Below the pieces are notes generated by a model. That model was not told the origin of the DNA. It ran no database searches and was given only the letters and a program-made list of their open reading frames with translations. A DNA stretch of 64,000 bases from a virus (Duplodnaviria > Heunggongvirae > Uroviricota > Caudoviricetes), in IMG/VR virus record IMGVR_UViG_3300020202_000067, positions 17,335 to 81,334 of that record. One strand, written 5' to 3'. The position numbers and the translations under genes were made by a program. The stretch's first letter is position 1. Each line of letters begins with the position of its first letter. Below, piece by piece: positions 23,440 to 64,000 of this stretch.

Positions 23440-23597
23440 GTCGTACTCTCCGGCAGGCCAAGGGCCTTGTTGACTTCCTCTCTTGTCAGCAACCGCTCAA
23501 TCGGTAGCTCATCGCACTTGCGCGTTAGCGGCCCGCTCAAGTTTGCTATGACAGCCATGCAGCTTCCGATCCGTTTGACTTTTCTGGGAAAGATCAT
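23436..23597 (-). CDS. small hypothetical protein (53 aa, not in track)
   Basis: MIFPRKVKRIGSC...LGLPESTT. ATGA overlaps with the SNF2 stop and the next start. Confidence 0.4.
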   Translation of the reverse strand: MIFPRKVKRIGSCMAVIANLSGPLTRKCDELPIERLLTREEVNKALGLPESTT

Positions 23598-25063
23598 ATG
23601 AGCCACTCGCGCCAAGTGTCGCCGTTAATAATAGCAGCCAGATCGATCTTGTCGCGCAGCGCCTTGATGAACTTCTCTTCAACTGTGCCGGGCGCTATCA
23701 GATCAATGTAGCCGATTGACTTGGTCTTGCCTACGCCTTTCGGACGCTCCTCGCTCTGGGAGCGGTGTTCAAGGTCCGATGTCGAAGAGTAATAGACCAC
23801 GAGATCTGCGCAGTCCCAAGTTCGTCCACGTCCACCTGCAGCTGCCGTAGCAACAATGAAACGGCAGGAAGGATCCGTTTTGAAAGATCTCTCCTCGTCT
23901 TCCCTGGTTGCACGATTGCCGCCCCAGAAGCGCGCCACCTTGCAATCAAACTCTTTGGCGAGCGCTTCCGAGACCTTTTTGATGTCGTGGTCGTACGAAC
24001 ACCAGATGATCGCCTTGCCATCGTAGTCCTCCAGCAACTCAATGAGCGCCTCAGTGCGCTTCTCAGGGATGGTGTGCCACCCACCCTCCTCATCACGCAC
24101 ATGCCCACACAACACCTGGTGCATGCGCAGGATCTGAGAGATGACGATGGTGGCAGTGACATGCTTCTCGCCAGAGAGCTTGGCGGTCGCAAACTGTTTC
24201 AGCTCCTTGTAGATGCGCTTCTGCTCATCCGTCAACGGCACCTCACGGAAGGCGTAGGTTGATGGCGGCAGATCGTAGCAGTCCTCGAGACGCACACGGA
24301 AGGAATGTGGCGCGATGCGGCGCTGCAAATCCTCGGCGTCTCGGTATCCGACGATGATCGGCACCTCGCGGCCACCGAACTTCATCGACTTCATCACGGC
24401 GTAGCGCGCACGGAAAGTGTAGAATGACTTGTGGCCAAGGATCCTTGGATCAAGGAACTCAAATTGGGAGAACAGATCCATCGGTGAACGCGGCGTGATG
24501 AGGCCTGAAAGAATGCGCTTGTACTCCGCCAATGGCGCAACGTTCTTGTTGATGAACTTGGTGCGCTTGGCCTTGTGATTCTTTATTGCTGTGGACTCGT
24601 CCACTGCGACAGCGTTCCGACCCTTGCGCTGGCGAAGTAAATTGAGCAGAAGATCTCGCGCCTGCTCGACTGTACTCAACGCCTCGATGTTCATCAACAA
24701 GATGCGAGGGCCGTTATGAGACATAAAGTCACGGATCTCTTGCTTCGCCCTCGCTGACCCATGGCTTCCGCTTTCCCAGACGAAGACGCGCGTCGCGCTG
24801 AGCACTTCGTCTGGCACATCGTCCTTGATGGCCTGGACCCATGTCTTGTAAACACCGGCCGGGGCGAGGACGACGAGGTCAAGGCACAAGCCTTCCCACA
24901 CCATCTTCGCCCAGTCATCGAGCGTGACTTTGGTCTTGCCGGTGCGCATAGCCATGAGCAGAGCGAACACCTTCTTGCCAGCCATACGCTTCAGAGCTTC
25001 AGATTGCTTCTCGCGCGGCTTGCGCTTGAATGGGTAGCGTTTTGTCATCTTGCATTGTTCCAT
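23594..25063 (-). CDS. SNF2-family DNA helicase/translocase
   Basis: 489 aa. GTGKT-like motif I (RTGKTKV), DESTAIKN (DExx box) and a C-terminal helicase lobe with AAGGRGRT. Confidence 0.85.
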   Translation of the reverse strand: MEQCKMTKRYPFKRKPREKQSEALKRMAGKKVFALLMAMRTGKTKVTLDDWAKMVWEGLCLDLVVLAPAGVYKTWVQAIKDDVPDEVLSATRVFVWESGSHGSARAKQEIRDFMSHNGPRILLMNIEALSTVEQARDLLLNLLRQRKGRNAVAVDESTAIKNHKAKRTKFINKNVAPLAEYKRILSGLITPRSPMDLFSQFEFLDPRILGHKSFYTFRARYAVMKSMKFGGREVPIIVGYRDAEDLQRRIAPHSFRVRLEDCYDLPPSTYAFREVPLTDEQKRIYKELKQFATAKLSGEKHVTATIVISQILRMHQVLCGHVRDEEGGWHTIPEKRTEALIELLEDYDGKAIIWCSYDHDIKKVSEALAKEFDCKVARFWGGNRATREDEERSFKTDPSCRFIVATAAAGGRGRTWDCADLVVYYSSTSDLEHRSQSEERPKGVGKTKSIGYIDLIAPGTVEEKFIKALRDKIDLAAIINGDTWREWLI

Positions 25064-39894: not shown

Positions 39895-40099
39895 GCTGAA
39901 ACCTCGTCCATGGCAAATCGCGCGGCTTCATCACGCGCTCCATTGTGGTGAATGTTCTTCCACAAGACAAACATTTGCGATGCCGTCTAGCACGACGTGT
40001 CTGCATCACCTTGCTTGCGCTGTACCGGCAATAGGGGCAACAGACCTCTGTCTGCGAACTCTTTGCTCCGGATCTTGGCAGTCTGATCCTAGCCATCAA
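39776..40099 (-). CDS. NrdR-like zinc-ribbon protein (no ATP-cone)
   Basis: CPYCRYSASKVMQTRRA..RRHRKCLSCGRTFTTMERV parallels the NrdR N-terminal zinc ribbon. The 3' 119 nt overlap the VRR-NUC gene and look like out-of-frame sequence. Confidence 0.45.
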   Translation of the reverse strand: MMARIRLPRSGAKSSQTEVCCPYCRYSASKVMQTRRARRHRKCLSCGRTFTTMERVMKPRDLPWTRFQREDRRGTATTISTTSTDGALAGGGDMEHGPRSARHELLP

Positions 40100-42929: not shown

Positions 42930-43375
42930 GCAGCCCTCTTCCCCTTGCGCTTATACCTTGGAATGCCAACTTCGCCTTCAACGACGCTGACCAATGCAAC
43001 AGAGCAATCACAACGCTTAGCAATTTCCTGCTGGCTCAATCCCTGCTTCGCCAAGGCGATGATCTTGGCGCGGCGCTCTGGATCATCTGTCTTCGGGCGC
43101 TTCTCAAGGCCAGCGATCCTTGCATAACGTAACACTGTATTGCGGGAGCATCCGTATTTCTTCTGAATATCATTCACCGGAACGCCAGCCTTGTAGTCTG
43201 CCACCACATGCTCAAAGCGCACCAAACGATTGGCGCGCTCATGAGTGAATGAAAAGATGCGCTTCACTTGCGCAATGAATTCAAGGAACGGCTTCACCGC
43301 CTTCCTGGTTCTCAGATACTCCGCCGCATCCTTCAGTGTGAACAGCATCATCTGGATCCTTCTTATTACGCTCAT
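42926..43375 (-). CDS. tandem-HTH DNA-binding protein
   Basis: 149 aa. Two resolvase/psq-type HTH units (IQKKYGCSRNTVLRYA and QQEIAKRCDCSVALVS). The start may be at MMLFTL. Confidence 0.55.
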   Translation of the reverse strand: MSVIRRIQMMLFTLKDAAEYLRTRKAVKPFLEFIAQVKRIFSFTHERANRLVRFEHVVADYKAGVPVNDIQKKYGCSRNTVLRYARIAGLEKRPKTDDPERRAKIIALAKQGLSQQEIAKRCDCSVALVSVVEGEVGIPRYKRKGKRAA

Positions 43376-43616
43376 TGATGCGTTTCATATCTTCAAGCGT
43401 GGCTGCGCCAGACGCCACAACAGCGCATTGCGCCCAACCTAGCCAACGGCATTTCTTGCCATATGACATTGGATCATTTTCATCTTCTCGTTCCCGCATG
43501 CGGTGATACATATTGATCAAATGCGCTGCGCTCAGAGGTCCGCTGTTAGGCAATTTCTGCGCAACGGACGATGCAAGATAAACGGTTTCTTTCATCGCTT
43601 CCATAACATTCATCAA
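43281..43616 (-). CDS. hypothetical protein (RWLGWAQC motif)
   Basis: 111 aa track ORF. The 95-nt 3' overlap with the next gene is unusual. Confidence 0.5.
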   Translation of the reverse strand: MMNVMEAMKETVYLASSVAQKLPNSGPLSAAHLINMYHRMREREDENDPMSYGKKCRWLGWAQCAVVASGAATLEDMKRINERNKKDPDDAVHTEGCGGVSENQEGGEAVP

Positions 43617-44155
43617 AGAATTCCCTTTTTAATGAGTTCAACACAACAGCGCTTGAGCGCCATGACGTCAACCTTGGCGCGATGAGCGCCCTCGAACTTC
43701 TCACCGAACAACAACTCGTGTAGGCCTGAAAGATTCAAGCGGTGACCTTTCAGGTGCACAGTCTGTTCCACAGTGCAGATCCTAATCTTTGGCCAATTAA
43801 CCTTGAGACCGCAACGTTCCGCCTCAATGTCGATCATCTCGATATCGAACGATAAGTTGTGCCCGATAACGATAGGTGATGCCTCGATCAGCTTAATGAT
43901 CTTCGAAGCTACATCCTTGAACGTTGGTGCGTCTTTCACATCCTCCCATTTGAGCCCTGTGATGGAGGTAATCAACTCAGTAATTGCCTCTGGTGAAGAG
44001 GGGCGTACAAGCTGATCGAGCTCATTGATCTTCTTGTCCTTAGCCAAGTCCCAAGTGCAGCCGTAGAATTCGATGAGCTCCGGCAGCTTGTCGTTCTTGA
44101 CTGTGCGGTTCTCAATGAGGCCGGTGGTCTCTGTGTCAAACAATAGAGCCTTCAT
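43613..44155 (-). CDS. dnaQ: DnaQ-like 3'-5' exonuclease (DEDDh)
   Basis: LLFDTETTGL (Exo I), GHNLSFDIEM (Exo II), HRAKVDVMAL (Exo III). Confidence 0.85.
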   Translation of the reverse strand: MKALLFDTETTGLIENRTVKNDKLPELIEFYGCTWDLAKDKKINELDQLVRPSSPEAITELITSITGLKWEDVKDAPTFKDVASKIIKLIEASPIVIGHNLSFDIEMIDIEAERCGLKVNWPKIRICTVEQTVHLKGHRLNLSGLHELLFGEKFEGAHRAKVDVMALKRCCVELIKKGIL

Positions 44156-44595: not shown

Positions 44596-45184
44596 TGCTA
44601 TTCCCCTTGGGGTGGATGCGGCGGATGTACTTAATGTAGGTTCCGGGCGCGAGCTCAAAGATGCGGTAGTGGTACTTGCGTCCGGCGCCTCCGCCAGTTG
44701 TAAGATATTCACTGGTGTGACTCTGCGTAAATGTCTCCTGGACGAGCGTGCACCCATCCATTGCAGGAAAATCTGCGCCGTCATCGAGGTGTATTCCTAC
44801 ATGGGAGATGAACTCTCTTCCAATGCCCCATAGAGGATTTCCTGCTTGGTTGTAGCTCACCGGAGCGCCCATTGCATAATGATCTCCAGAAGCTAGGTGC
44901 CAGTGCCTGCCTTCAATGTAAGTCAAGATCTCAAGCTCAATGCCGAGAGAATAGTTGAACTGCAGACGGCCCTTGTTGATGCACCACTGGCCGTCCGGGA
45001 ACAGTGACTTGGCGGTCACGACGTCCTCGACCCAAGGCTCTGTGTCAAGACCCAAGAGAACCTTGATGCGTTCTTCTTGGTCCTTGGTCCTTGCGTAGAA
45101 GGCAATCTGATCAATCTTCATCGGAGGTTTTTCTAGTTTCACGTTCACCACCTTCGTTTTCCAGTTGTCCGGAGAAATGTTCAT
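44588..45184 (-). CDS. VOC (glyoxalase/epimerase)-fold protein
   Basis: Start at MNISPD (ATGA coupling to the SDR gene). KIDQIAFY, IELEIL, ISHVGIHLDD and YRIFEL give a paired beta-alpha-beta-beta-beta pattern. Confidence 0.5.
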   Translation of the reverse strand: MNISPDNWKTKVVNVKLEKPPMKIDQIAFYARTKDQEERIKVLLGLDTEPWVEDVVTAKSLFPDGQWCINKGRLQFNYSLGIELEILTYIEGRHWHLASGDHYAMGAPVSYNQAGNPLWGIGREFISHVGIHLDDGADFPAMDGCTLVQETFTQSHTSEYLTTGGGAGRKYHYRIFELAPGTYIKYIRRIHPKGNSND

Positions 45185-45879
45185 GGCCCACCATACGGAA
45201 TGTCGCACCCGGCGAGATATTTGTGGCGCTCCTTGGAGGAGAGAAGGAATGCGATGAACTCAGCGATGATAGCTGGTGGAGTTTCCTCGCCTGCAGGCAA
45301 AGCAGCAAGTTGATATTCTCTAGCTTGCTGTTCCGTCCACCCTCTGAGCTGCACCACGCGCCGGTCGATCTCTGCACTCATGTGCGTGCCTGACATCTTG
45401 TTGGGAGAGACGCTGAACACGGTGATGTTGTGCGTCTTCTTCAACTCACGCGCCAACTGCTTTGTCAGAATGGCGGCCGCGCCCTTGGAAGCGTTGTAAG
45501 CCGCTGAAGATGTCATTGGCACATGGCTGGCATTGGAAACGATGTTCACCACCGTCCCATCACGCAGCTCTTCAAGAAGCGCCTTGGTGCAAAGGAAGAT
45601 GCCCTTGGCATTGGTGTCCATCACATCATCCCACTCCTGCTCTGGAACGTTTGGCAGGAAGTTGATGCGATTGATGCCTGCACAATTGATTAGAACATCG
45701 ATCTTGTCCAGCCCCCGCTTCAAAAGATCGAGCCGAGCCTGCCCAATAGAAAAGCTGCTCGACACATCAATGTGGTGCTTCAGCGACCAGTCAATCACTC
45801 TCCAGCCATTCTTCAAGAGATGGTTGGAGATCGCTTCACCCAAGCCACTGCTCGCGCCTGTGATAACTGCTGTCTTCAA
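45181..45879 (-). CDS. short-chain dehydrogenase/reductase (classical SDR)
   Basis: TGASSGLG, NCAG and S...YNASK motifs. 232 aa. Confidence 0.85.
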   Translation of the reverse strand: MKTAVITGASSGLGEAISNHLLKNGWRVIDWSLKHHIDVSSSFSIGQARLDLLKRGLDKIDVLINCAGINRINFLPNVPEQEWDDVMDTNAKGIFLCTKALLEELRDGTVVNIVSNASHVPMTSSAAYNASKGAAAILTKQLARELKKTHNITVFSVSPNKMSGTHMSAEIDRRVVQLRGWTEQQAREYQLAALPAGEETPPAIIAEFIAFLLSSKERHKYLAGCDIPYGGP

Positions 45880-46319
45880 TTCTGCCTCCCATGCACCAAG
45901 AGCGCTGTGATACCAGCCTCTCTGAACGCTGCAACGACATCTTCTCTGTCGTCAATGATCAAGGCAACTTCATCTTTGAACCGCTCGCCGAAGCGTTCGG
46001 CGGCCAGCTTAAGCTTTATTTCCGCTGCCGGATGATAAGCCTCGTCCGGCCGCATAAGCAGCTCATCGAACATGGCGCCATGCTTGACGAGCAGCTCCAT
46101 AGTAAGCTTGCGCCACTTCTCCGGTCGTGCCGTAATGCCAACGATGTACATGCCGCCAGCGCGCATTGCATTAATCATGTTGACAACGTCATGGATCGGC
46201 TCGTCATCCTTGGAAGCGGCATGATAAGCGTCCCATCCTCCAGGGCCACCGATCATGTCGTCACGCCAGAAAGCATTCGACACTGTATGATCAATGTCAC
46301 ACAAAACGATCTTCCTCAT
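45876..46319 (-). CDS. HAD-superfamily phosphatase (PNK-phosphatase/5'-nucleotidase-like)
   Basis: CDIDHTV (DxDxT), GITAR (motif II), IIDDRED (motif IV). Confidence 0.65.
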   Translation of the reverse strand: MRKIVLCDIDHTVSNAFWRDDMIGGPGGWDAYHAASKDDEPIHDVVNMINAMRAGGMYIVGITARPEKWRKLTMELLVKHGAMFDELLMRPDEAYHPAAEIKLKLAAERFGERFKDEVALIIDDREDVVAAFREAGITALLVHGRQN

Positions 46320-46561
46320 TGCTTTTGCACTCCTGCCATATTCTCGTAGAGTGCAAGCAATGAAGCATAGACCTTTTGCGGTGGATAAGGCGATGTGCCT
46401 GCATCGAACATCTTGAACTCGTTATCGCGATCACCCTTAAAGAAAGCGATCAAGATAACATGCTCCGCTCCAAGCCGCTCCTTGACTGCAACAGCCTCCT
46501 GATTGGCCGCCTGCTTACGCTGCAAGGCTACTTCTTGTTTGCCCAATTCGTCCTGCGCCAT
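46316..46561 (-). CDS. hypothetical protein
   Basis: Start moved to MAQDELGK (GAGGAGGGAG RBS). 81 aa. Confidence 0.5.
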   Translation of the reverse strand: MAQDELGKQEVALQRKQAANQEAVAVKERLGAEHVILIAFFKGDRDNEFKMFDAGTSPYPPQKVYASLLALYENMAGVQKQ

Positions 46562-46776
46562 GACGCTCCCTCCTCTGCGCACTTGCGCGCTTCTGAAACC
46601 ATTTCCATGTCTTGGGTTGGACGCAACCCGCACTTGACCATCATCTCCCGACGATTGGCCCAGAGCTCAAGAAGCTCTTGGAACAACGGATCGCGCGCCA
46701 ACAATACGAACATTGGCTCGTCATCCTTGGCCTTCTCGTAACAGTCAAACTTGCCGGGGTTCTTCTTGGTTCCCAT
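46528..46776 (-). CDS. hypothetical protein (PGKFDCYEKA..DEPMFVLLARD family)
   Basis: Start at MGTKK after ATGGAGCTGAAG. The motif recurs in phage small proteins, function unknown. Confidence 0.55.
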   Translation of the reverse strand: MGTKKNPGKFDCYEKAKDDEPMFVLLARDPLFQELLELWANRREMMVKCGLRPTQDMEMVSEARKCAEEGASWRRTNWANKK

Positions 46777-46966
46777 CTTCAGCTCCATAGATCTTCATTC
46801 GGACTTTGTGTTCAGTTCTCATAGTGCGGTTCATCTCTTCTGTCATTTCATTTTGCTTCTCCAATGCGTCAGCGATGCGTTTGAGGGAAATTGCTACAGA
46901 TCTGTCATAAAAAGCCTTCCCCGAGCTGAAACTGCCAGCCTCAAATAATTCAACATCTCTGTTCAT
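46745..46966 (-). CDS. hypothetical protein
   Basis: 73 aa track ORF. The ATG shares one base with the upstream stop. Confidence 0.5.
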   Translation of the reverse strand: MNRDVELFEAGSFSSGKAFYDRSVAISLKRIADALEKQNEMTEEMNRTMRTEHKVRMKIYGAEDGNQEEPRQV

Positions 46967-47382
46967 CAGAACTGTTTACCTCCTTCTTTCAGACGGTTCT
47001 CAGGCTTGTGATCTTCACGCTTTTCATTGTACCAGACCTTCTCGAGCACAGCGCCAGAGAGATCAAGTCTGAACGCTCCTCCATAGTCAAAAGCGCGAAT
47101 GAATAGATCTCCCAGCTCGACCTCCTCGCTCTTACGGTGCGGCAAGTGATCATCCATCTTGTCCTTACGCACACCTTCGAGCATCTCAGATAGTTCAGAA
47201 TGCTTGAGCGCAATCATCTCACCTTTGTTTCTTTCGATCCGCTCTCCCGTTCTTGGGTCCTGCCACCACCTTGCGTTTTTGTGGTGCAGGATCGCGGCCA
47301 GCCAGTTGAGGCTTTGCGCGTGTTGAACGAGCAGTCTGTTGATCGTCTCTTCGCTGAACCGGCTCAAGTCTGGTAAGCTCAT
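46966..47382 (-). CDS. MazG-like nucleotide pyrophosphohydrolase
   Basis: Start at MSLPDL. ALKHSELSEMLEGVRK ... EEVELGDLFIRAFD ... EKVWYNEKREDH fits the all-alpha NTP-PPase E..E/E..D pattern. Confidence 0.6.
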   Translation of the reverse strand: MSLPDLSRFSEETINRLLVQHAQSLNWLAAILHHKNARWWQDPRTGERIERNKGEMIALKHSELSEMLEGVRKDKMDDHLPHRKSEEVELGDLFIRAFDYGGAFRLDLSGAVLEKVWYNEKREDHKPENRLKEGGKQF

Positions 47383-47545
47383 CTTCCATCTCCACTCCGA
47401 CAATGTAAAGTTCATTACGCAGCTCGGTGAGTGACATCCTGCTTAGCCGTCCTGAAGTTACGGCCAAGGTCGAGGTGACTTTGGAAAGACGTTGATGCCA
47501 CCTCACCCAAGCGATGATTTTCTCAGTAATGGTCTCACCCCGCAT
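47219..47545 (-). CDS. hypothetical ORF (only the 5' ~130 nt are unique; the rest overlaps the MazG-like gene)
   Basis: The only ORF covering 47416-47534. Its C-terminal two thirds are low-complexity and out of frame with the MazG-like gene. Confidence 0.3.
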   Translation of the reverse strand: MRGETITEKIIAWVRWHQRLSKVTSTLAVTSGRLSRMSLTELRNELYIVGVEMEDELTRLEPVQRRDDQQTARSTRAKPQLAGRDPAPQKRKVVAGPKNGRADRKKQR

Positions 47546-47741
47546 GCTTGACCATCACTTCGATATTCAATACTCTGAGTTGCTTAAGCACACTTTCAGC
47601 GCCTTCCCGATAGCCCTGAAGTCTTGCTTGCGCCTCCGCTTCATCTCTTGTGCGTTTGAGCTCATGAAGTTCTTTCAACAACTCCTCAACTTTCTTTTGA
47701 TCGCCACATATTTCTTGGGCGAACAGTTTATAGTCTGTCAT
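47535..47741 (-). CDS. hypothetical coiled-coil protein
   Basis: 68 aa track ORF. Confidence 0.55.
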   Translation of the reverse strand: MTDYKLFAQEICGDQKKVEELLKELHELKRTRDEAEAQARLQGYREGAESVLKQLRVLNIEVMVKHAG

Positions 47742-47863
47742 GACAACGCCCTCATCTGATCGATCAACTTGATCATGTGCGTCTTCTGTTCAGCAGAGAT
47801 TGTGTTGTCAATTCCTGGAAACTGAGAAACAGGAATTGATCTGACGACTTCTCCACGCATCAT
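47738..47863 (-). CDS. small protein (41 aa, not in track) ending in the same 12 aa as ThyX
   Basis: MMRGEVVRSIPVSQFPGIDNTISAEQKTHMIKLIDQMRALS. ATGA overlaps at both ends. Confidence 0.5.
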   Translation of the reverse strand: MMRGEVVRSIPVSQFPGIDNTISAEQKTHMIKLIDQMRALS

Positions 47864-48825
47864 TGCGCCGGAACCGCGACTGGTGTTGAACTTGGCAGAA
47901 CCATAACATTAACCTTGCCTGTCTCTACAGCCTTCATGAGAGCATCGGCTCGCTCCTTCTCAGCCAGAGCCAACAGCACATCACGAATTTGCGCTGGCGT
48001 GAAGTTGTCAGGCAATTGCTCAAACAAGCGCTTGACACCAATGCCTTCATTCGAGCGTCTTGCCGCTTGCTCCTCAGCTATCTGCGTCAGCAATTTTTGG
48101 CGCTTGCGGTCCTCTTCAGAAGCCATGCGTTCAGCAATAGCGTTAAGCACCTTGGCGTCTGGCAGCACTTCGCGCAGAAGCACCGGCATGAAGGTGATTG
48201 CGCCCTTGGCCTCTGTATCCGTGAAGCCAAGCTTGATGAGATCATTGTTCACGGCGCGAACGACTTCCTCCATCATGCGCTGTTCAACGTCCGCGCGCCG
48301 CTCAACGCTAGCGTCTGCCCATGGAAATGAGGCGATTGCGTCTCTGACCGCGGCCCTTGCGGCGGGAACAATAAGATTGCGTTCAAGTGCATCCTCGTCG
48401 CCAATGCGCTGCAGGATCTTCCATGCGACTGAAGGGTTGATGGAGTAGGGGAAGGAAGCTTCCACCTGCACCGGGTTATGATCCTTAGACATCGACACAA
48501 TGGTCGGGCCGTCTGCGTCTTTGGCCTTGGCTGAGAAGTCAACGGACCGGCGCTGGATGGAGATCTTGGTGACGTCGTACATCGGGTTCATGAAGCGCAA
48601 CCCTTCAGGATAGGCTGTCTCCTGCACCGCGCCGAACCATTGGCCAACGCCAACATGGCCTGTGGAGACAGGGCTGATGGACATGATCAATGACCAAATG
48701 GCAGTGACCACCACACCTGCAACAAACCACAAACCAGCCAGACCTCCGCGACCGTCCAGCAACGAGAAAAGAGTCGCAATCAGAACGATAAAAGCGATGA
48801 TGCCTACACCAACAAGAAACAACAT
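47860..48825 (-). CDS. SPFH/band-7 (prohibitin/stomatin-like) membrane protein
   Basis: 321 aa. Two N-terminal TM helices, an SPFH-like core, then an A/E/R-rich coiled coil. Confidence 0.7.
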   Translation of the reverse strand: MLFLVGVGIIAFIVLIATLFSLLDGRGGLAGLWFVAGVVVTAIWSLIMSISPVSTGHVGVGQWFGAVQETAYPEGLRFMNPMYDVTKISIQRRSVDFSAKAKDADGPTIVSMSKDHNPVQVEASFPYSINPSVAWKILQRIGDEDALERNLIVPAARAAVRDAIASFPWADASVERRADVEQRMMEEVVRAVNNDLIKLGFTDTEAKGAITFMPVLLREVLPDAKVLNAIAERMASEEDRKRQKLLTQIAEEQAARRSNEGIGVKRLFEQLPDNFTPAQIRDVLLALAEKERADALMKAVETGKVNVMVLPSSTPVAVPAQ

Positions 48826-48835
48826 GTCTTCCTCC

Positions 48836-49594
48836 TCAGGAAAGAGCTCTCATCTGGTCGATCAGCTTGATCATGAACCTCTTCTCCTCGATTGAGATCG
48901 GGAGTTGTCTGATGTGATTGTCAAGATCATTCGCTGCCTTATCGAACGTTCGCTCGATAAACAAGTCGATCCAAGGGTGCACGGCGCGCACCGCAGTCTT
49001 CATGTCCTCAAGCACGTCACGGTATTCGCCCTGGGTGCGGGATGAGGAGCGCTTGCGCACCACATCAACAAACGTGCGCATGTTCATCTTGGCGACGATG
49101 TTGGTCAAGATGTTGGTGGGCAAGATGCCGCGTGCGTCTTCGATCGCAGCGCCATTCTTAATTAGCTCCTTGTAAACTGTATCAGTGAACGACATGCCTT
49201 GATCATAGATATGTTGTAGTCCTTCACTCTCAACGATGCTCGGCCCTGTCAGGTAGTCCCACCCCGGACCCTCGCTCACGTCCAAAACGCGCATGGTCTG
49301 TTGAGCAAAGCTGGCGGTGCGCGTGCGCACAAACTGGTGCGTGAAGGCGCGCGTCACATCCTCAATGACGAAGGTGTAGTCAACAAACTCCCAACTCGAT
49401 GGGATCGTATTGGCCATGTATTCGAGCTCCTTCCAGAGCTCAGCGATCGGCATGTCGAGGTATTTGCGCAAGCCTTCCGGGTTCATGGTGAGGCGCGTGT
49501 TCTTGGTGAACACAAGCAGTGCCGCCGCATAGTGGCTGGCATCCAGCCGCCCAGACCCGGTGTAGTCAAGCAGTGAGACCTTCAGCTTCTTCAT
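48836..49594 (-). CDS. thyX: flavin-dependent thymidylate synthase-like protein (divergent signature)
   Basis: Start at MKKLKVSLLDYTG. Signature RTRTASFAQQTMR versus the canonical RHRxxSxxxxSxR. About 30-aa C-terminal extension. Confidence 0.7.
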   Translation of the reverse strand: MKKLKVSLLDYTGSGRLDASHYAAALLVFTKNTRLTMNPEGLRKYLDMPIAELWKELEYMANTIPSSWEFVDYTFVIEDVTRAFTHQFVRTRTASFAQQTMRVLDVSEGPGWDYLTGPSIVESEGLQHIYDQGMSFTDTVYKELIKNGAAIEDARGILPTNILTNIVAKMNMRTFVDVVRKRSSSRTQGEYRDVLEDMKTAVRAVHPWIDLFIERTFDKAANDLDNHIRQLPISIEEKRFMIKLIDQMRALS

Positions 49595-50273
49595 CGCTCT
49601 CTCCATAAACTCTCTCAAGCACCTGCCGGACCTTCATGAGATCCATCTTGTCGTCCACTGTCCGCACGCCGCTTTCCATGTCGATGTAGTACGGGCCGCG
49701 CGCATTCATCTTGACCAGTTCAGCAACAACTTTGTCAGGGTTGAGGCCGCCTGAATAACCGTTGATGCCTTGCTTGTTTTCAAGATAGCGAGGCCAATGC
49801 TCTGGTCGGAGACCTCTTCCGCCTGAAGGATCATACAACCAATCTACCCGAGGATCAGTCGGCATCGCCGGTAATTGATGCTGCAACACCACGCGCACGC
49901 CATACTTCTTGCTGAACTCTACAGCATGGTCTTTCCAAAAGACATCTCCTGAAACAGGACGATAGTTGACCTGCACCCTCTGGAAACGCGACCATGGTAT
50001 GCTTGGACTGACAGGGTCAAGATCGCCGGTGTCGATGATCTTCTTCGCAAAGTAACCACAGATGTGCGCGGAGAGCGGCAACATCGATCTGGCCAGCTCC
50101 TTCACGTATGCGTAATCTGGGTAGCGAGGATGATTGCCGCTCTTGGTCGGCGAGAAGAGCACACCCCATTCAATGCGGCCGAGGTTCTCACGCGTGATCA
50201 CTTCAGCGTCGTTGATGTAGATGCTCTCATCGATGCCGGTGAAGGTGATGTGGTTAGGGAGCAACATTGCCAA
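49566..50273 (-). CDS. TrpF (phosphoribosylanthranilate isomerase)-like TIM-barrel protein
   Basis: Collinear with TrpF blocks: ITFTGID, EWGVLF, VQVNY, LYDPSGGRG, YSGGLNPDKV, IDMESGV. The TrpF catalytic Cys position is Thr. Confidence 0.5.
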   Translation of the reverse strand: MAMLLPNHITFTGIDESIYINDAEVITRENLGRIEWGVLFSPTKSGNHPRYPDYAYVKELARSMLPLSAHICGYFAKKIIDTGDLDPVSPSIPWSRFQRVQVNYRPVSGDVFWKDHAVEFSKKYGVRVVLQHQLPAMPTDPRVDWLYDPSGGRGLRPEHWPRYLENKQGINGYSGGLNPDKVVAELVKMNARGPYYIDMESGVRTVDDKMDLMKVRQVLERVYGESDEEAEGLTA

Positions 50274-52821: not shown

Positions 52822-52937
52822 GCTGCATCCTCCGGAACTTCAGCGTGGTGAAGATAGCGCACAATCTTCTCCTCAGCGAGCAGCGCGAGCCGCTCTGCTT
52901 GGGTCTCGGTCAAGCCGTTGTGATGATTTGTGGTCAT
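52818..52937 (-). CDS. small hypothetical protein (39 aa, not in track)
   Basis: MTTNHHNGLTETQAERLALLAEEKIVRYLHHAEVPEDAA. ATGA overlaps at both ends. Confidence 0.4.
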   Translation of the reverse strand: MTTNHHNGLTETQAERLALLAEEKIVRYLHHAEVPEDAA

Positions 52938-53305
52938 GAAATTGCAACCTCAAATGTGGGCCATCGAACTTGGCGCTTGGGTTGATATGGAAACGTCACT
53001 GGAACATTGCTGTCGATGTCATACACGCGTCCAGTTCTAGCATCTTTGAATACAGAACCACAACGCTTGTTCTGAAACAATGGGCCATCATCTGAAATTT
53101 CCATCCACTCATCGTCCTCACCCGTGAGCGGAGAGAGCGGACCGCCCGCAAGCAATTGCATGAACACCGGAGCGACAGCCGCGACGGCTCCTCCACTGTC
53201 CCATTGATCGAGAAACTTTTCCAAGATCTCAATCATGACTGCGCTGTCTTCCTCGCCGAAGTTGATGCGCTCAAGCTCAGCCTTGGCTTGATCGATGATG
53301 CTCAT
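52934..53305 (-). CDS. hypothetical protein
   Basis: 123 aa track ORF. Confidence 0.6.
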   Translation of the reverse strand: MSIIDQAKAELERINFGEEDSAVMIEILEKFLDQWDSGGAVAAVAPVFMQLLAGGPLSPLTGEDDEWMEISDDGPLFQNKRCGSVFKDARTGRVYDIDSNVPVTFPYQPKRQVRWPTFEVAIS

Positions 53306-58320: not shown

Positions 58321-59039
58321 TGCTCCGGGGTCCTGGACGCATTATAGAACATGAACTCGCGGGGTTCTTCTCTGAAATGAGAAGAGTCCCGCGACTGCGT
58401 GGCGTTGAAATTCGAGAGCGCTTTGATGATATGTCCATAAGCGTCATATTCAGAACCGATGAAAGCTCATTCAGCGTCCGCATTGATCAGAGATATTTTG
58501 AAGGCCTGACTCAACAATATTGGGTGATCGACAGCTTCCGTCGCTATTGCGAAGAGTTGTACTGTCACGTCGCTAATAATTTCACCAGAGGCTGCGAAGC
58601 AATAGGTCATCGTCATTATGAGAGAATGCAAACCATTGAAGATGAAGTCTCTCGTTCTATTCACCAGACACCTCCGGCGTACTGGCTACCTCCAGTAATA
58701 GCAGAATATGGCCGAGAACTTGAGCGCGTTTATGGCATTAATCCGGCAACCGAACGTTCCATGGAACTGTTACGACGATGGCTCTCAAAAGAGCAACTTG
58801 AACAGTTCGAAGCTGATGGACACTTCATTGTTGTCGGCAACGTAACAAGGCATGAATATCGCATTGAGCAAGCGCATATGTTTGGCGTAGTACGCATGAA
58901 AGATCAAATGAGCTTCTGCTTTGTGCCGCAAGGCGCGCTATCCATTGGAGACATCATGCTGGCGCAAAAGATCAGTTTAGAGACCGATGAGCTTGCTGCA
59001 TTGCGCATTGCTAACAAAAGACCATACAATGTCTTCTGA
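58317..59039 (+). CDS. hypothetical protein
   Basis: 240 aa track ORF. Confidence 0.65.
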   Translation: MMLRGPGRIIEHELAGFFSEMRRVPRLRGVEIRERFDDMSISVIFRTDESSFSVRIDQRYFEGLTQQYWVIDSFRRYCEELYCHVANNFTRGCEAIGHRHYERMQTIEDEVSRSIHQTPPAYWLPPVIAEYGRELERVYGINPATERSMELLRRWLSKEQLEQFEADGHFIVVGNVTRHEYRIEQAHMFGVVRMKDQMSFCFVPQGALSIGDIMLAQKISLETDELAALRIANKRPYNVF

Positions 59040-59163
59040 TTTCAAAAGAGGAGCGCTGGTCGGATTTTTGGCCACACTGGCGTTCAATGAATTGATCTGG
59101 CAAAGATGGATCATGGCTGCGCTTCTATGCGTGCTGATCTACTTGCTCTCACGGAGGGGATGA
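59029..59163 (+). CDS. small membrane protein (44 aa, not in track)
   Basis: MSSDFKRGALVGFLATLAFNELIWQRWIMAALLCVLIYLLSRRG. Two hydrophobic segments. Confidence 0.4.
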   Translation: MSSDFKRGALVGFLATLAFNELIWQRWIMAALLCVLIYLLSRRG

Positions 59164-59164
59164 G

Positions 59165-61474
59165 GTGGATACCAGCTACAAGAAAATACCAGCGCTCGCG
59201 GCATACATCGACCGCGTCGGCGCTGAGCAACTCAACTTCAAGCGCTTCATGGTGAAAGACTACAAGGGGCACTACTACACTGAACGCGCAATGATCGTGA
59301 TCAAGGAAGACTTCACGATCTTTTGCTCCAATAAGAACTATGCTCCGACCAAAGAAGAAGCAGAAGCCATCAAGCATGAGATGGCCAAGCATGACTTCCC
59401 CAAAGCGATCAAGGTCAGAGACATCAAGGCGCTGGTCAAGATGCTCAAGGAAGAAAAAGAGATCTCTTCCGAAGATGAGCTCTTCACATTCATAGACCGC
59501 CATGACGGTCAAATCATCATGGTGCAGCAACTCAAGCGCTTGCCCGATGGTCGGAAGATCTACCCGCCTTGGTCCTTCTGGAGTGATGGTGAATGGCGAC
59601 GCATGGAGCCGGGCGGCTTGCTGCCCTTCTGGAAGCCCGCTAAGCAGCGCAAGACCAAAGTGATGCTCCATGAAGGAGCCAAGGTCTCACGGTACCTGGA
59701 GACAGAACTATCGAAGAAGGGCCATGGTGAGCTTGCTAACCATCCATGGTTGACAATCTTGCTAGAATTCGAGCATTGGGGAATGATTGGTGGTGCTCTC
59801 TCTCCTCATCGCGCTGATTATGCTGAGCTGCGACGCGAGAAACCCACTGAAGTTGTTTATGTGTGCGACAATGACTGGCCCGGTCAGGCCGCGCTTCAAG
59901 AAGTCTCCAAGGCTTATGGCTACTCACTCAAGGGGATCCGCTTCGATGAACGCTGGCCGCAGTCATGGGATCTGGCAGATCCGATGCCAGAAGCTTTCTT
60001 CAAGAGCGGACGATATCTCGGTCCGGCTCTTGAAGAACTCCTGGTACCGGCCACGCGAGCCACTGAAATCGTGCCGAACCCCGAAGGCAAGGGACGACCT
60101 GCAACTCGTCTGCTGAGGGATTTTCGCGAAGAGTGGTTTCATTGCGTCAAGCCTGAAGTGTTTGTGCACGGCGGCTGGCCCAACCGTATCTTCACAGCGC
60201 AAGAGTTCAACAACTTTGTGGCACCATTCAGTGATGTACTTGAGACCGCCAACTTGCTCAAGAAGGACGGCGCATCAAAGTCTGCGGTCCTCAAGTACAG
60301 CCCGGCAATGGAACCAGGCATCTACGGCTCCGGCGATGACGGGCGCTTCATCAACACGCATGTTCCAGCGCCCATCAAAGCTGAGAAAGGCAACGCTGCG
60401 CCGTGGGTGGAGTTCATGGAGCACTTGGTGCCTGATGAAGGTGATCGCAAAGAGTTAATCAGGTGGTGCGCCACCTTGATCTGTCGCCCAGACATCAAGA
60501 TGCTGTACGGTGTGCTGCTGATCTCTGAGATCCAGGGCATGGGGAAGGGGACATTAGGCGAGAAGATCCTCGCACCGCTCGTGGGTGAGACCAATGTGTC
60601 CTACCCATCGGAGCAAGAAATCGTTGACTCCAACTACAATTACTGGCTCGCACACAAGCGACTAGCCGTGGTCCATGAGATCTATGCTGGACACTCCTCC
60701 AAGGCATACAACAAGCTCAAGTCGATCATCACAGACAAGAACGTGAACGTGTCGATGAAGTATATGGCCAACTACACCGTTGAGAATTGGATCCATGTAT
60801 TCGCATGTTCCAATTCGATGCGTGCATTGCAGCTTGCCTCCGACGATCGCAGGTGGTTCGTGCCTAAGATCTCTGAGGTCAAGAAGCCTCGGCAATTTTG
60901 GTTAGACTTCAACCACTGGCTGAAAGAGCAAGGTGGCCTCGGCATCATCAAGTGGTGGATGGAGCGTTGGCTCGAAAAGAACGAACCAGTGTTGCCTGGC
61001 ACCGACGCTCCTTGGTCCGTGCTTAAAGGCGAGATCGTTGAGGAAGGCTACTCTCCCGGCATGAAGTTGGTGGCTGATACACTCGACTACATCAAGGGAG
61101 TGCTCAATGGCGATGATCCTAAGAAGAAGGCGGAATGGGAAGGTGCGGGCTACCTACGGGACGGAAGCATATTTGTTCTTGACACAGCGCTCGTGGAGCT
61201 CATTCGCCAAGCCATCTATGAAGGCCGCCACAATGATCGCCTTGAGCGCCCGGCCACAATACGTCGCGTCGCGAAGTCTAAAGGATGGTTTATCGGTGAG
61301 ACGCGGTCTTCCGTCAAGGAGTGGATAAATAGCACAAAGGCGGCTATGGGTGGGAGAGTGATAGCCAATACCAGAGAGTTGGCCATCACTCGTCCAGGAG
61401 ATCTGTGCAATGAAACCATGTCAGAGAAGGATAAGCGTCGTCCACTCGACGTCGCGCAGTTTATGAGGATGTGA
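59165..61474 (+). CDS. primase-helicase (Toprim + D5/VirE-type SF3 helicase)
   Basis: 769 aa, GTG start after GGAGGGG. VVYVCDNDWPGQAA (Toprim DxD), GMGKGTL (Walker A), AVVHEI and DDRRWFV. Confidence 0.8.
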   Translation: MDTSYKKIPALAAYIDRVGAEQLNFKRFMVKDYKGHYYTERAMIVIKEDFTIFCSNKNYAPTKEEAEAIKHEMAKHDFPKAIKVRDIKALVKMLKEEKEISSEDELFTFIDRHDGQIIMVQQLKRLPDGRKIYPPWSFWSDGEWRRMEPGGLLPFWKPAKQRKTKVMLHEGAKVSRYLETELSKKGHGELANHPWLTILLEFEHWGMIGGALSPHRADYAELRREKPTEVVYVCDNDWPGQAALQEVSKAYGYSLKGIRFDERWPQSWDLADPMPEAFFKSGRYLGPALEELLVPATRATEIVPNPEGKGRPATRLLRDFREEWFHCVKPEVFVHGGWPNRIFTAQEFNNFVAPFSDVLETANLLKKDGASKSAVLKYSPAMEPGIYGSGDDGRFINTHVPAPIKAEKGNAAPWVEFMEHLVPDEGDRKELIRWCATLICRPDIKMLYGVLLISEIQGMGKGTLGEKILAPLVGETNVSYPSEQEIVDSNYNYWLAHKRLAVVHEIYAGHSSKAYNKLKSIITDKNVNVSMKYMANYTVENWIHVFACSNSMRALQLASDDRRWFVPKISEVKKPRQFWLDFNHWLKEQGGLGIIKWWMERWLEKNEPVLPGTDAPWSVLKGEIVEEGYSPGMKLVADTLDYIKGVLNGDDPKKKAEWEGAGYLRDGSIFVLDTALVELIRQAIYEGRHNDRLERPATIRRVAKSKGWFIGETRSSVKEWINSTKAAMGGRVIANTRELAITRPGDLCNETMSEKDKRRPLDVAQFMRM

Positions 61475-61489
61475 ATTGGAGCTGGCTCG

Positions 61490-61789
61490 ATGAAATTGAA
61501 ATATTTAACAAAGCGTGAACGCCAAGTTTTTGATGCGTGCGTTGGCGGCTTGCTCGACAAGGAAATTGCCCACACTCTCGATATCAAGTCAGAGACAGTC
61601 AAGGTGCACAAACACCACATTTACAAAAAGCTAGGATTGAGGAACAAAGCTGAACTCGCCTTCATACGTGGAAAACAGGAAGCCGTTTCAATCCTCGAAC
61701 TCATTGCCTTGACCGAATTTGCCGGCGATGAATCAGTCAGCAGGCTTGTGGCCAAATTCAAGGAGAAAGTCGAAAATGGCCTGGGTTGA
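61490..61789 (+). CDS. LuxR/GerE-type HTH regulator
   Basis: LTKRERQVFDACVGGLLDKEIAHTLDIKSETVKVHKHHIYKKLG. Confidence 0.8.
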   Translation: MKLKYLTKRERQVFDACVGGLLDKEIAHTLDIKSETVKVHKHHIYKKLGLRNKAELAFIRGKQEAVSILELIALTEFAGDESVSRLVAKFKEKVENGLG

Positions 61790-62414
61790 AAGTGAGGTTG
61801 CAGAGCTCAAGCGACTTGTTGAAGACACGGATCTTTCACGCAAAGAGATCGCTGCGCTCTTGGGCAAGACCAAGGGCATGGTTTCCTCCAAGCTCTGGGC
61901 CATGGGTCTGACGCTGAAGGATGAGACGTGGAATGCTGAAAGAGAACAGGCTCTGAGAGAACTCGCTCTCGCTGGAAGAACTGCCAAGGACATCGCCAAG
62001 GAGCTTGGCAATGGGATCACGCGCAATGCTGTGGTTTCAAAAGCTGCAAGAATGAAGATCTCGCTCAACGGCGATCTCAAGCAACGCAATGTGCACGGCA
62101 AGCACCCCACCATGAAAGAGATCGCCGAGCGCTCTTCTGCGCGCTACAAGCCGCGAGAGCGTGAGGTTCCAGGGATCATATTCAGACATTGTCAGTGGCC
62201 AATCGGAGACCCTCTTGAGGAGGGCTTCCATTTCTGCTGCCAGCCTGTCATGGAACCGAAGAGGATGCCGAACGCTCGGCGCGAGACCCGCTATCCTTAC
62301 TGCGAGGCGCATTGCTGTCGAGCGTATGGCGGATGGACCTACGAGGAATATGTTGAAGCCTTTGGTGAAGAGAAGGCCAAGAAGTACTGGGCGCAGAAGA
62401 GGCAGCGCCAATGA
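61776..62414 (+). CDS. gcrA: GcrA-like cell-cycle regulator homologue with duplicated N-terminal HTH
   Basis: Start at MAWVESE (AAGGAG RBS). Two W..E....L..L......s...IA..LG...RNAV.SK..R units and a C-terminal CQWPIGDP...FHFC...PYCEAHC. Confidence 0.7.
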   Translation: MAWVESEVAELKRLVEDTDLSRKEIAALLGKTKGMVSSKLWAMGLTLKDETWNAEREQALRELALAGRTAKDIAKELGNGITRNAVVSKAARMKISLNGDLKQRNVHGKHPTMKEIAERSSARYKPREREVPGIIFRHCQWPIGDPLEEGFHFCCQPVMEPKRMPNARRETRYPYCEAHCCRAYGGWTYEEYVEAFGEEKAKKYWAQKRQRQ

Positions 62415-62605
62415 AGCGCCATGTGCTTTGCTACTTTGGCATTCACAAGTGGCGCTATGAAGGCCAGCAACTTGGTTGTTGCGGCTTGGGCCTTGAGCGA
62501 TTTGAGGTCTGGGTCTGTGAGCGCTGTCCAAGGATGTTCTCGCAAATAGCTAACACGCATGAAGGCAAGATGCCGCTGTATGAGGACAGACTATGCACAA
62601 AATAG
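62411..62605 (+). CDS. small Cys-rich protein
   Basis: 64 aa, ATGA-coupled. Confidence 0.5.
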   Translation: MKRHVLCYFGIHKWRYEGQQLGCCGLGLERFEVWVCERCPRMFSQIANTHEGKMPLYEDRLCTK

Positions 62606-62730
62606 AATTTGACATATTTGTCTTCGGCTTGCGGGCCGACATCGCGCTGGCGGGCTACATCGCGCCCATGTTCCGTGATGCGCCGAGCAACTGCATCTTG
62701 CCAGAGGAGTGGAGGCAATGGCTAACATAA
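62593..62730 (+). CDS. small hypothetical protein (45 aa, not in track)
   Basis: MHKIEFDIFVFGLRADIALAGYIAPMFRDAPSNCILPEEWRQWLT. Bridges two track ORFs. Confidence 0.35.
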   Translation: MHKIEFDIFVFGLRADIALAGYIAPMFRDAPSNCILPEEWRQWLT

Positions 62731-62909
62731 TCAACGCTTTCGGTGACACGGCTGTTGTCATCGAATATCTGGGAGGCTTGCGTCAGAGAGTCATCCCATT
62801 TTCCATTCGCCACAACGGGAACCAGTGGCTCCTTAGAGCTTGGTGCTGTGAGAAGGATGAGGAAGTGTTCATTGAGATGAACAAGATCTATGATTGGTGT
62901 GAGAAATGA
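62718..62909 (+). CDS. WYL-like mini-domain protein
   Basis: Start at MANIIN (GGAGTGGAGG RBS). RQRVIPFSIRHNGNQWLLRAWCCEKDEEVFIEMNKI resembles a WYL beta-barrel. Confidence 0.4.
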   Translation: MANIINAFGDTAVVIEYLGGLRQRVIPFSIRHNGNQWLLRAWCCEKDEEVFIEMNKIYDWCEK

Positions 62910-63106
62910 CCAAGGCACTCAGCGATGCACAACAAGCTTGGCTCAAGGAGCATCCTGACTACGTGCTCGTAGGGCCGCCGCGCGTCGGCTCTTGGTACGT
63001 GGATTGTGGGACGCTTTATGCCGATGGAAAGTTTATTTTGCATCGGCAGGGAAATGCAGTCGAGCTCAAGGAAGGTTGCAAAATGGTAGGCATCAGACAC
63101 ACATGA
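62906..63106 (+). CDS. hypothetical protein
   Basis: 66 aa track ORF. Confidence 0.55.
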   Translation: MTKALSDAQQAWLKEHPDYVLVGPPRVGSWYVDCGTLYADGKFILHRQGNAVELKEGCKMVGIRHT

Positions 63107-63277
63107 GCTCAAGCTGCGACGTCCATTCCGCTCATGTGAAGTGCTAAGCGGCAAGGGCGTGCACATCTTCATTCCGCTGCCGAAGTTTAAACAGACAGCG
63201 CTCTGTAATCTTCTCGGAAGAAATCAAAGGGGATCGCGCAAAGAGAGCTGTGTGTCTCAACAAGATGAGGTGTGGTG

Positions 63278-63445
63278 ATGAATGAGGTCGAATTCAGAGC
63301 CAAGATCGTCATGGCGCTGAGAGCCCTGGCGAAGGGCAATGTCGATGATGCTCAAGACTGCATCGATGATTTGGAAGAATTTGTCATCCAAGAAATCATG
63401 GACGAGCCTGAACTTGGCTTCCTCATCAAGGAAATGGAGCGGTGA
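63278..63445 (+). CDS. small acidic protein (55 aa, not in track)
   Basis: GAGGTG RBS. MNEVEFRAKIVMALRALAKGNVDDAQDCIDDLEEF... Confidence 0.45.
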   Translation: MNEVEFRAKIVMALRALAKGNVDDAQDCIDDLEEFVIQEIMDEPELGFLIKEMER

Positions 63446-63618
63446 TGGAAATCGTGCTTCTGTTCTTGCCCATTTACCTCTCCATTGGCTTGGTGTGTGG
63501 AATAGCCAATGTTCTGCAGAACCTCGCGCGCTTTCACGGTGGTGGGTTCCATTGGAAACGCATAGCGAAGTATCTGCTGCTTTTCGCTTTCCTCTGGCCA
63601 TTATGGGTGCTCGGATGA
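63445..63618 (+). CDS. small membrane protein (57 aa, not in track)
   Basis: MEIVLLFLPIYLSIGLVCGIANVL...YLLLFAFLWPLWVLG. Two TM helices, coupled at both ends. Confidence 0.45.
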   Translation: MEIVLLFLPIYLSIGLVCGIANVLQNLARFHGGGFHWKRIAKYLLLFAFLWPLWVLG

Positions 63619-63926
63619 TCTCAATCGTGGAAGCTGCTGCGAGAGGCATTGAGCGTGTGCGGATGGAGGAATGGTCGAATGCGTTCGACCATTTGAAAAT
63701 CGATATTGTGGATACGCTCCCTGGTCCTTGGTTGAAGCTTTACAGCCCCATGAACAAGGCGGTCAATGGCAAGGATCCTGTGTTATTCGCCTGGGCTGTC
63801 GGACCAATGAAAACGGACGTGCATGCCAAGATTTTCGAGCCTTACAATGGGCCGTTGCCTGATTCTGAGGAATATAAAGAGGAGGTGGAGAAGTGGAATG
63901 AAACGCGTGATACTCAGAAGGCCTAA
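63615..63926 (+). CDS. hypothetical protein
   Basis: Start moved to MISIVEAAARG (ATGA coupling). The upstream part of the 195-aa track ORF overlaps the two small genes above. Confidence 0.5.
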   Translation: MISIVEAAARGIERVRMEEWSNAFDHLKIDIVDTLPGPWLKLYSPMNKAVNGKDPVLFAWAVGPMKTDVHAKIFEPYNGPLPDSEEYKEEVEKWNETRDTQKA

Positions 63927-64000
63927 GAACAAGAGTGAAAAATTCTATCGGGCATGGCTCAAAATTGTGGGCGAACACCACAAGAAGCACAAGCCGCTTC
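63898..64000 (+). CDS. hypothetical protein, N-terminal fragment (runs off window)
   Basis: MKRVILRRPKNKSEKFYRAWLKIVGEHHKKHKPL... is open to the window end. GGAGG upstream. Confidence 0.35.
   Translation, partial: MKRVILRRPKNKSEKFYRAWLKIVGEHHKKHKPL

Follow-up and report, generated by a model that had tools for sequence, protein, structure and literature searches.

Our analysis indicates that a phage protein of the GcrA family carries two GcrA-type helix-turn-helix (HTH) units in front of a zinc-motif sigma70-interacting domain (SID). GcrA is among the few bacterial transcription factors that ride on sigma70 and read DNA methylation. The gene studied here lies at positions 61776 to 62414 of a 64,000-nucleotide (nt) stretch of the Caudoviricetes record IMGVR_UViG_3300020202_000067 (positions 17,335 to 81,334 of that record; the whole stretch is hereafter called the window), and it encodes 212 amino acids (aa). 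We propose, with a probability of roughly 0.6, that the product is an early sigma70-docking cofactor with a bipartite DNA-binding head, that its site preference would be unlike that of host GcrA, and that it would redirect RNA polymerase (RNAP) to phage promoters or retune host promoters. This reading is favored because both functional surfaces of GcrA are kept and a second HTH is added. Sigma70 binding, DNA specificity, timing and the effect on host or phage transcription are what we infer from sequence and modeled structure.

The gene and the parts of its product are the following (HMM, hidden Markov model; AF2, AlphaFold2; pLDDT, predicted local distance difference test).

61776..62414, + strand: GcrA-family gene, 212 aa plus stop (Pfam PF07750, phmmer, Foldseek)
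61776..61919, + strand: unit 1 (aa 1-48), divergent GcrA-type three-helix HTH (hhalign, HMM, AF2 pLDDT 93-96)
61923..62069, + strand: unit 2 (aa 50-98), canonical GcrA DNA-binding domain (phmmer to 5yiu, E 8e-6; HMM 3e-25; Foldseek 5yiv_A)
62070..62171, + strand: linker (aa 99-132), mostly of low confidence, with a predicted helix at 113-123 (pLDDT 56-78)
62172..62345, + strand: sigma70-interacting domain (aa 133-190) with CCCH zinc motif (phmmer to 5yix; HMM 1e-20; Foldseek 5yix_B)
62346..62411, + strand: C-terminal helical tail with basic end KAKKYWAQKRQRQ (AF2 helices 189-196 and 198-211)

The assignment to the GcrA family is solid on the sequence and on the structural model. A profile search recovered the family, since PF07750 matched in two stretches with 60.2 bits against a gathering cutoff of 26.9. 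With phmmer the protein was aligned to the Caulobacter crescentus GcrA structures 7ye1, 5yiu and 5yix, residues 49-96 falling on the GcrA DNA-binding domain (DBD; 5yiu/5yiv) and residues 135-160 on the SID (5yix, 7ye1). The AF2 model, based on 19 homologues, had a mean pLDDT of 84 and contained three-helix bundles at 5-43 and 54-92 (pLDDT 92-96), after which come a linker of low order, a Cys-rich domain that is largely non-helical and a pair of terminal helices. When it was compared with the PDB by Foldseek, the best match was 7ye1_G, which is GcrA in a transcription activation complex; taken by domain, the DBD matched 5yiv_A with a TM score of 0.88 and a root-mean-square deviation (rmsd) of 0.6 Å, and the SID matched 5yix_B with 0.80 and 1.3 Å. 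Together with the phage genes on the same contig (described below), these matches confirm the first-pass annotation, which had called a phage-encoded GcrA-family protein from the letters alone. Its coordinates and peptide motifs (CQWPIGDP...FHFC...PYCEAHC) were all correct on re-reading. Within the family, the protein is very divergent in sequence. When 1.84 billion cluster representatives were searched exhaustively with phmmer, 2225 matched at E <= 0.001, the best besides the protein itself at 4.5e-21; the nearest homologues were 30-37% identical, and none closer was found in a word-indexed search of 5.8 billion proteins.

The two HTH units are supported by several lines of evidence. BLASTP of unit 1 (1-49) against unit 2 (50-105) returned nothing, so the units are not recent copies, and profile methods were needed. 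In hhalign, unit 1 matched a GcrA DBD profile built from ten GcrA DBDs with an E-value of 3e-6. Against an HMM built from 117 single-unit DBDs, it scored 28.3 bits, while the top of 2000 shuffles reached 11.1. With the two AF2 bundles, these scores uphold the earlier claim of two GcrA-type units. Relatives were also found to align across both units (P0134 over 1-186, P0155 and P0032 over 2-184), and PHROG 323 covers residues 2-108, that is, both units, in one stretch.

The first unit could in principle have been a mis-called upstream region, as the first-pass annotation itself had pointed out, and this is not what we found. The homologues P0082 and P0157 start with M-A-W, and their alignments to the window protein run from residue 1-3 over both units. 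In the window gene, the next Met codons in frame are M34 and M42, which lie inside the first bundle, and a start at either would split it. A TTG at 61719 was considered as an alternative start and rejected, since the overlap with the preceding gene would be 71 nt and homologues begin MAW.

The two units are not equivalent. Unit 1 is 29% identical to its own unit 2 and 40-44% identical to DBDs of other proteins. Because unit 1 is closer to foreign DBDs than to its own neighbor, the sequences point to an old duplication or to a domain gained by recombination. Thus, of the duplicated HTH described earlier, the homology of the two units stands, and the notion of equivalent copies does not, given the low identity and the reading residues lost in unit 1.

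This loss became evident when the DNA- and methyl-contact residues of C. crescentus GcrA, namely W3, T32, R33, N34, I37, G38, K39 and R42 (Wu et al., PMC5887438), were mapped onto both units. The R42A mutation impairs GcrA function (PMC5887438). Unit 2 retains W3, T32, R33, N34, K39 and R42, which amounts to the canonical contact set. Its substitutions I37V, G38S, S20T and W15A are each found among single-unit homologues (V37 in 4 and S38 in 7 of the 117), and it also carries H41A. Unit 1 retains W3, T32 and K39, which serve the fold and backbone contacts, and does not have the canonical contact set, as it carries R33K, N34G, I37S, G38S, H41W and R42A; position 42 is arginine in 116 of the 117 single-unit homologues. 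Having lost the residues that read bases and N6-methyladenine, unit 1 would be unable to read a GANTC site in the canonical way. As a whole, the tandem head gave weak Foldseek fold matches (E 0.13-1.3) to the bipartite binders Tc3 transposase DNA-binding domain, Myb R2R3 and double homeodomains.

The sigma-facing part of the protein is well preserved. All four ligands of the zinc motif are retained (C139-X14-C154-X21-C176-X2-H179), and the reference spacing in the GcrA SID is C-X14-C-X9-C-X2-H. The 21-residue loop was considered as a special feature and rejected, because it lies inside the range of 8-23 (typically ~10) that the second Cys-Cys spacer spans across 176 family members. Ten of the 12 residues of the SID interface are identical to those of GcrA (W120, G123, D124, P125, G129, F130, F132, Y142, A150 and Y151). 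The basic end of the C-terminal tail stands at the position of the GcrA basic patch.

Overall, the window protein resembles C. crescentus GcrA (PF07750; 5yiu, 5yiv, 5yix, 7ye1) in the three-helix DBD with W3, T32-R33-N34, K39 and R42, which is represented by unit 2, in the CCCH zinc SID with the signature WPIGDP...GF.F.C...PYC..H...AY, and in the basic C-terminal end. In contrast to GcrA, it is phage-encoded, has an added N-terminal DBD-like unit and a linker of ~35 aa rather than ~60, and differs in the SID by C-X21-C in place of C-X9-C, K119Q and V149R.

The GcrA SID docks on sigma70 region 2 ahead of promoter binding, and the flexibly tethered DBD then picks methylated sites (PMC5887438, PMC4647560). 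By analogy, the window protein would bind the host sigma70-RNAP early in infection through its C-terminal zinc domain, and the holoenzyme would thereby be armed with a bipartite DNA-binding head. Unit 2 may contact a GANTC-like element, and unit 1, which lies only a few residues upstream of it, may add contacts to adjacent DNA, whether sequence-specific or not. The outcome would be a promoter preference distinct from that produced by the host's own GcrA.

Several observations count against this proposal. The AF2 model had a predicted TM score of 0.46, so it does not predict how the domains are placed relative to one another. K119Q, V149R and the 21-residue loop could alter sigma binding, although the loop is within the family range. 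GANTC enrichment in phage promoters had been suggested earlier as a check, and the opposite was observed: GANTC is strongly avoided in the window overall, and the sites left over are not enriched between genes (7 of 79 sites in the 11.4% of the sequence that is intergenic, p = 0.8). The extended C. crescentus motif YGAKTCK occurs at chance level (22 sites, ~20 expected), the GANTC sites share no flanking motif beyond a T/A beside the core, and a search for intergenic k-mer motifs gave none that was convincing. No DNA methyltransferase domain was detected among the scanned open reading frames (ORFs) of the window. An alphaproteobacterial host is our best guess from sequence, and it is not established. 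In the open-access literature, we found no experiments on any phage GcrA-like protein.

Other explanations of the same features were weighed. The strongest of them, which we still regard as unlikely, is that the protein acts as a host GcrA and switches on the GcrA regulon (replication, division) at CcrM-methylated promoters, taking over the host cell cycle and making the cell competent for replication; the first-pass annotation had likewise read the gene as a sign of host cell-cycle manipulation. The residues for such canonical activity are retained in unit 2 and the SID, the same idea has been put forward for gp222 of phage phiCbK (PMC3556154), and the phage has its own replication enzymes and a GANTC-avoiding sequence background. 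However, the protein departs from host GcrA in its additional degenerate unit, in H41A of unit 2 and in its linker and tail, which speaks against simple mimicry, and a phage with its own DnaE-type polymerase, exonuclease, primase-helicase and ThyX would have less need of host replication genes.

The conserved SID interface and the loss of reading residues in unit 1 would also suit a competitive inhibitor, which takes the GcrA site on sigma70 region 2, displaces host GcrA and shuts S-phase promoters, with the N-terminal units playing a minor or sequestering part. The C. crescentus crystal complex shows the GcrA SID bound to sigma70 domain 2 at 1:1 (PMC5887438), and a second SID protein could plausibly compete for it. 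We consider such a role improbable, since unit 2 retains every key DNA-contact residue, which would not be expected to persist in a pure competitor. Moreover, among 36 relatives with two or three units and a SID, all except P0035 have at least one confident DBD unit (independent E-value, i-E, 2e-12 or better). It appears just as doubtful that unit 1 is a protein-interaction or regulatory module that does not touch DNA, for example one that binds the co-expressed LuxR-type protein or masks unit 2: the loss of R42, N34 and I37 and the co-translation with a small HTH protein would fit, but the backbone-contact residues W3, T32 and K39 are retained, both units are canonical in the relatives P0078, P0074 and P0155, and no LuxR neighbor was present at 7 other checked loci. 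We keep the bipartite sigma70-docking cofactor as the preferred reading.

The first-pass annotation had considered the tandem units unusual, and the survey of homologues contradicts this. The 158 nearest 50%-cluster representatives, a sample that is biased towards the tandem query, were scanned with purpose-built DBD and SID HMMs. One DBD plus a SID was found in 117 proteins, two DBDs plus a SID in 31, three plus a SID in five and six plus a SID in one; four proteins had several DBDs and no confident SID, and neither domain was detected in one. In a second sample, which was limited by the word index, a tandem layout was present in 2 of 67 new proteins. Judging from these sequences, the true share of tandem proteins can be put at anything from a few percent to a quarter. 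The two-unit layout is also present in PHROG 323, in the Brevundimonas phage Bajun and partly in Brucella phage Tb; thus, by sequence it is recurrent in phage and prophage GcrA-like proteins and was there already in deposited, annotated phage genomes. Phage copies of GcrA have been noted since 2012, and we found no paper in open-access text that describes a multi-unit architecture. The present case exposes an undescribed but widespread multi-unit subfamily, and it raises the question of whether a second HTH shifts the promoter choice of a sigma70-tethered factor.

The units of these proteins have diverged to very different degrees. Identity between the two units of one protein ranged from 93% to 20%, and in P0074, P0060, P0053 and Bajun each unit has the other as its closest relative, which indicates that the duplication arose several times independently. 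Among two-unit proteins, the R-N recognition pair is kept by the second unit in 14 and by the first unit in 8. Larger arrays were also seen: P0015 (locus L015, 86-1282, 398 aa) has six GcrA-type HTH units and a SID, in P0011 (617 aa), which lacks a SID, the C-terminal half contains four strong units, and P0133 (685 aa), likewise lacking a SID, has four confident partial units and some weaker ones.

Where the genomic context of a tandem relative was informative, it was in every case phage or prophage, and Bajun and Tb are isolated phages. The genes of two-unit relatives sit in early or replication modules. P0134 was found on temperate-phage-like contigs with CI/Cro, ParB_N, VRR_NUC and D5_N, and P0081 in an integrated prophage (integrase, ERF, YqaJ, DnaB, terminase) flanked by Maf and YacG. 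P0155 was accompanied by an S24 repressor, RusA, SNF2 and DnaB, and P0022 by HNH and DUF1376. A scan of GTDB genomes with the prophage protein P0081 gave no confirmed match.

Metagenomic P0134, P0155 and P0081 are like the window protein in having two DBDs and a SID and in their early or replication modules, and in P0134 and P0081 it is also the first unit that is degenerate and the second that is canonical. They differ in that they are 30-34% identical to it and their phages are temperate (repressor, integrase). P0155 differs further by an R-N pair in both units (SRNGV, TRNAV), and two of the three have an N6_N4 methyltransferase nearby, whereas none was found in the window.

The sole INPHARED match was the “cell cycle regulator” of Brevundimonas phage vB_BgoS-Bajun (UTC29682.1, ON529858), with 27% identity over 84% of the query. 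It shares the layout of two clear DBD units plus a SID. In contrast to the window protein, its units are 56% identical and mutually closest, as after a recent duplication (29% in the window protein), N34 is in neither unit and R33 in unit 1 only (SRAAV and THRAV, versus TRNAV), and the phage is a 207-kb phiCbK-like phage. The “GcrA-like protein” gp04 of the Brucella phage Tb group (YP_007002012.1; 225 aa; Pfam GcrA 48.9 bits) likewise has a GcrA unit, a second HTH-like unit and a Cys/His C-terminus. However, its order is reversed, with the canonical unit first and a degenerate one second; only aa 69-85 of that second unit match, and weakly so (i-E 0.0017), and WPIGDP is missing from the strongly degenerate SID. 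The homologues in phiCbK (gp222) and related Caulobacter phages are also phage members of PF07750. Unlike the window protein, they have a single DBD, and their alignments with tandem queries cover only unit 2 and the SID. It was proposed that gp222 modulates the host cell cycle (PMC3556154).

A broader interpretation, which we offer only tentatively, is that multi-unit GcrA-like proteins form a phage-borne class of sigma70-tethered activators, whose heads may read composite sites and redirect host RNAP to phage promoters; in the window protein, the degenerate unit 1 might extend or adjust how unit 2 reads GANTC.

The sequence background of the window bears on the host. GANTC occurs at 79 sites, whereas base composition predicts 247 and a first-order Markov model 344 ± 17. 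When all 1024 pentamers were ranked under a maximal-order Markov model, GAATC/GATTC were the most under-represented, with an observed-to-expected ratio of 0.28, and GAGTC/GACTC ranked 9-10 with 0.59. GATC was ~2-fold over-represented (486 versus 247). Avoidance of GANTC is consistent with its methylation (CcrM) or restriction (HinfI-type) in the host, and genomes of Alphaproteobacteria are known to be depleted in this word.

The first-pass annotation had taken the gene as a pointer to the host class. The GcrA gene and the strong GANTC avoidance make an alphaproteobacterial host plausible but fall short of proof, since phages whose deposited hosts are Synechococcus and Microcystis have GcrA-like genes too. 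As annotated, GcrA-like genes are therefore not confined to alphaproteobacterial phages. One such copy, in Synechococcus phage Ssp-JY42 (PP438432, L011 2528-3139; also OM868079), is a GcrA-like protein that has one unit and whose WPIGDP zinc domain is fully canonical. Among cultured phages, the capsid is closest to that of a Pelagibacter phage (33% identity), followed by Vibrio phages, and for the DnaE-type polymerase, phages of Gammaproteobacteria are closest. For host prediction, a GcrA gene combined with extreme GANTC avoidance is thus a useful pointer to GANTC-methylating hosts and is not decisive.

A possible link between reading and writing of methylation was observed elsewhere in the family. 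Two contigs of temperate phages or prophages carry, in one operon, a tandem GcrA-like gene and, a few genes further downstream, a gene of N6_N4_Mtase, the Pfam family to which CcrM belongs (L012 15532-16209 and L014 9031-9936). This arrangement hints at a phage-borne reader-plus-writer pair.

The window is part of a phage genome. An identical 212-aa protein is encoded on the 81-kb ENA metagenome contig ERZ27257313 k141_2927950, which also encodes a large terminase, a Phage_capsid_2 capsid, a nozzle-like protein, an SLT transglycosylase, a NusG-like gene and a primase; this gene content identifies the sequence as phage. A megablast search of 59000-64000 against 50,697 deposited phage genomes gave no match, and an IMG/VR scan with the GcrA-like protein found no relative.

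The features immediately around the gene are as follows.

59165..61474, + strand: DUF5906 / D5-type primase-helicase, 769 aa (Pfam PF19263; PHROG DNA primase)
61490..61789, + strand: stand-alone GerE/LuxR-type HTH gene, 99 aa (Pfam PF00196, 62.3 bits, aa 5-57)
61760..61765, + strand: Shine-Dalgarno-like AAGGAG within the LuxR-type gene, 10 nt upstream of the GcrA ATG (sequence reading)

The + strand from 59.1 to 63.9 kb is a compact same-strand block with genes of early or replication type: the primase-helicase, the LuxR-type HTH gene, the GcrA-like gene and small ORFs. The LuxR-type gene starts after a 15-nt gap and ends with TGA at 61787-89, and the GcrA-like frame of 213 codons opens at ATG 61776 and closes with TGA at 62412-62414. 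The 14-nt overlap between them, ATGGCCTGGGTTGA, is read in different frames. It had been reported, with the GerE assignment, in the first-pass annotation, and both are present (62.3 bits, gathering cutoff 23.5). There the overlap was thought unusual; it looks like the ordinary packing of a compact phage operon, as the GcrA-like stop also overlaps the start of the next gene by 4 nt (ATGA). The GcrA-like gene is probably translationally coupled to the LuxR-type gene. A scan for sigma70-type promoters over 56-64 kb found 4 where 5.2 were expected, which is at chance level or below.

The LuxR-type protein had no second Pfam domain, and thus no sensor or receiver domain of the quorum-sensing LuxR or NarL type; on its sequence, it is a stand-alone sigma-region-4-like HTH plus a 40-aa tail. 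Its PHROG matches are sigma-factor and regulator families. A word-indexed search returned only the protein itself, so conservation of the pair could be checked from the GcrA side only. At 7 other loci, for which neighbor annotation came from Pfam scans or was precomputed, no GerE gene adjoins the GcrA-like gene, and the adjacency of the two genes is a single observation at this locus.

Other genes of the phage were noted in passing. No tRNAs were found in the window. A NusG-family protein of 165 aa (L001 14981-15478) lies beyond the window end, ~5 kb downstream of the GcrA-like gene and before the terminase, and is a second candidate modifier of the transcription machinery in the same phage. 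At 10359-19343 (+), downstream of an SLT-domain protein, a single ORF of 2994 aa has PHROG matches to internal virion proteins and a Zeta_toxin/AAA_33 kinase-like domain at aa 637-790; from its sequence, it is probably a giant ejected virion protein with a zeta-toxin-type kinase. In the early region, a 123-aa protein at 52934-53305 (-) matched Pfam Tad3, an inhibitor of type I Thoeris, and is a candidate anti-defense gene. Bacterial-type replication and metabolism genes were found at 40089-44155 (-), 45181-49618 (-) and 23594-25063 (-); the set comprises a DnaE-like Pol III alpha (946 aa), an RNase_T/epsilon-like exonuclease, ThyX, a short-chain dehydrogenase, an SPFH/Band 7 protein and an SNF2 helicase. 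Finally, a pooled Pfam scan of 51 smaller ORFs, which gave counts per family only, returned one-member matches to HTH_23, HTH_7 and HTH_28 and a weak one to GerE; these overlapping matches probably represent one more small HTH regulator gene in the window.

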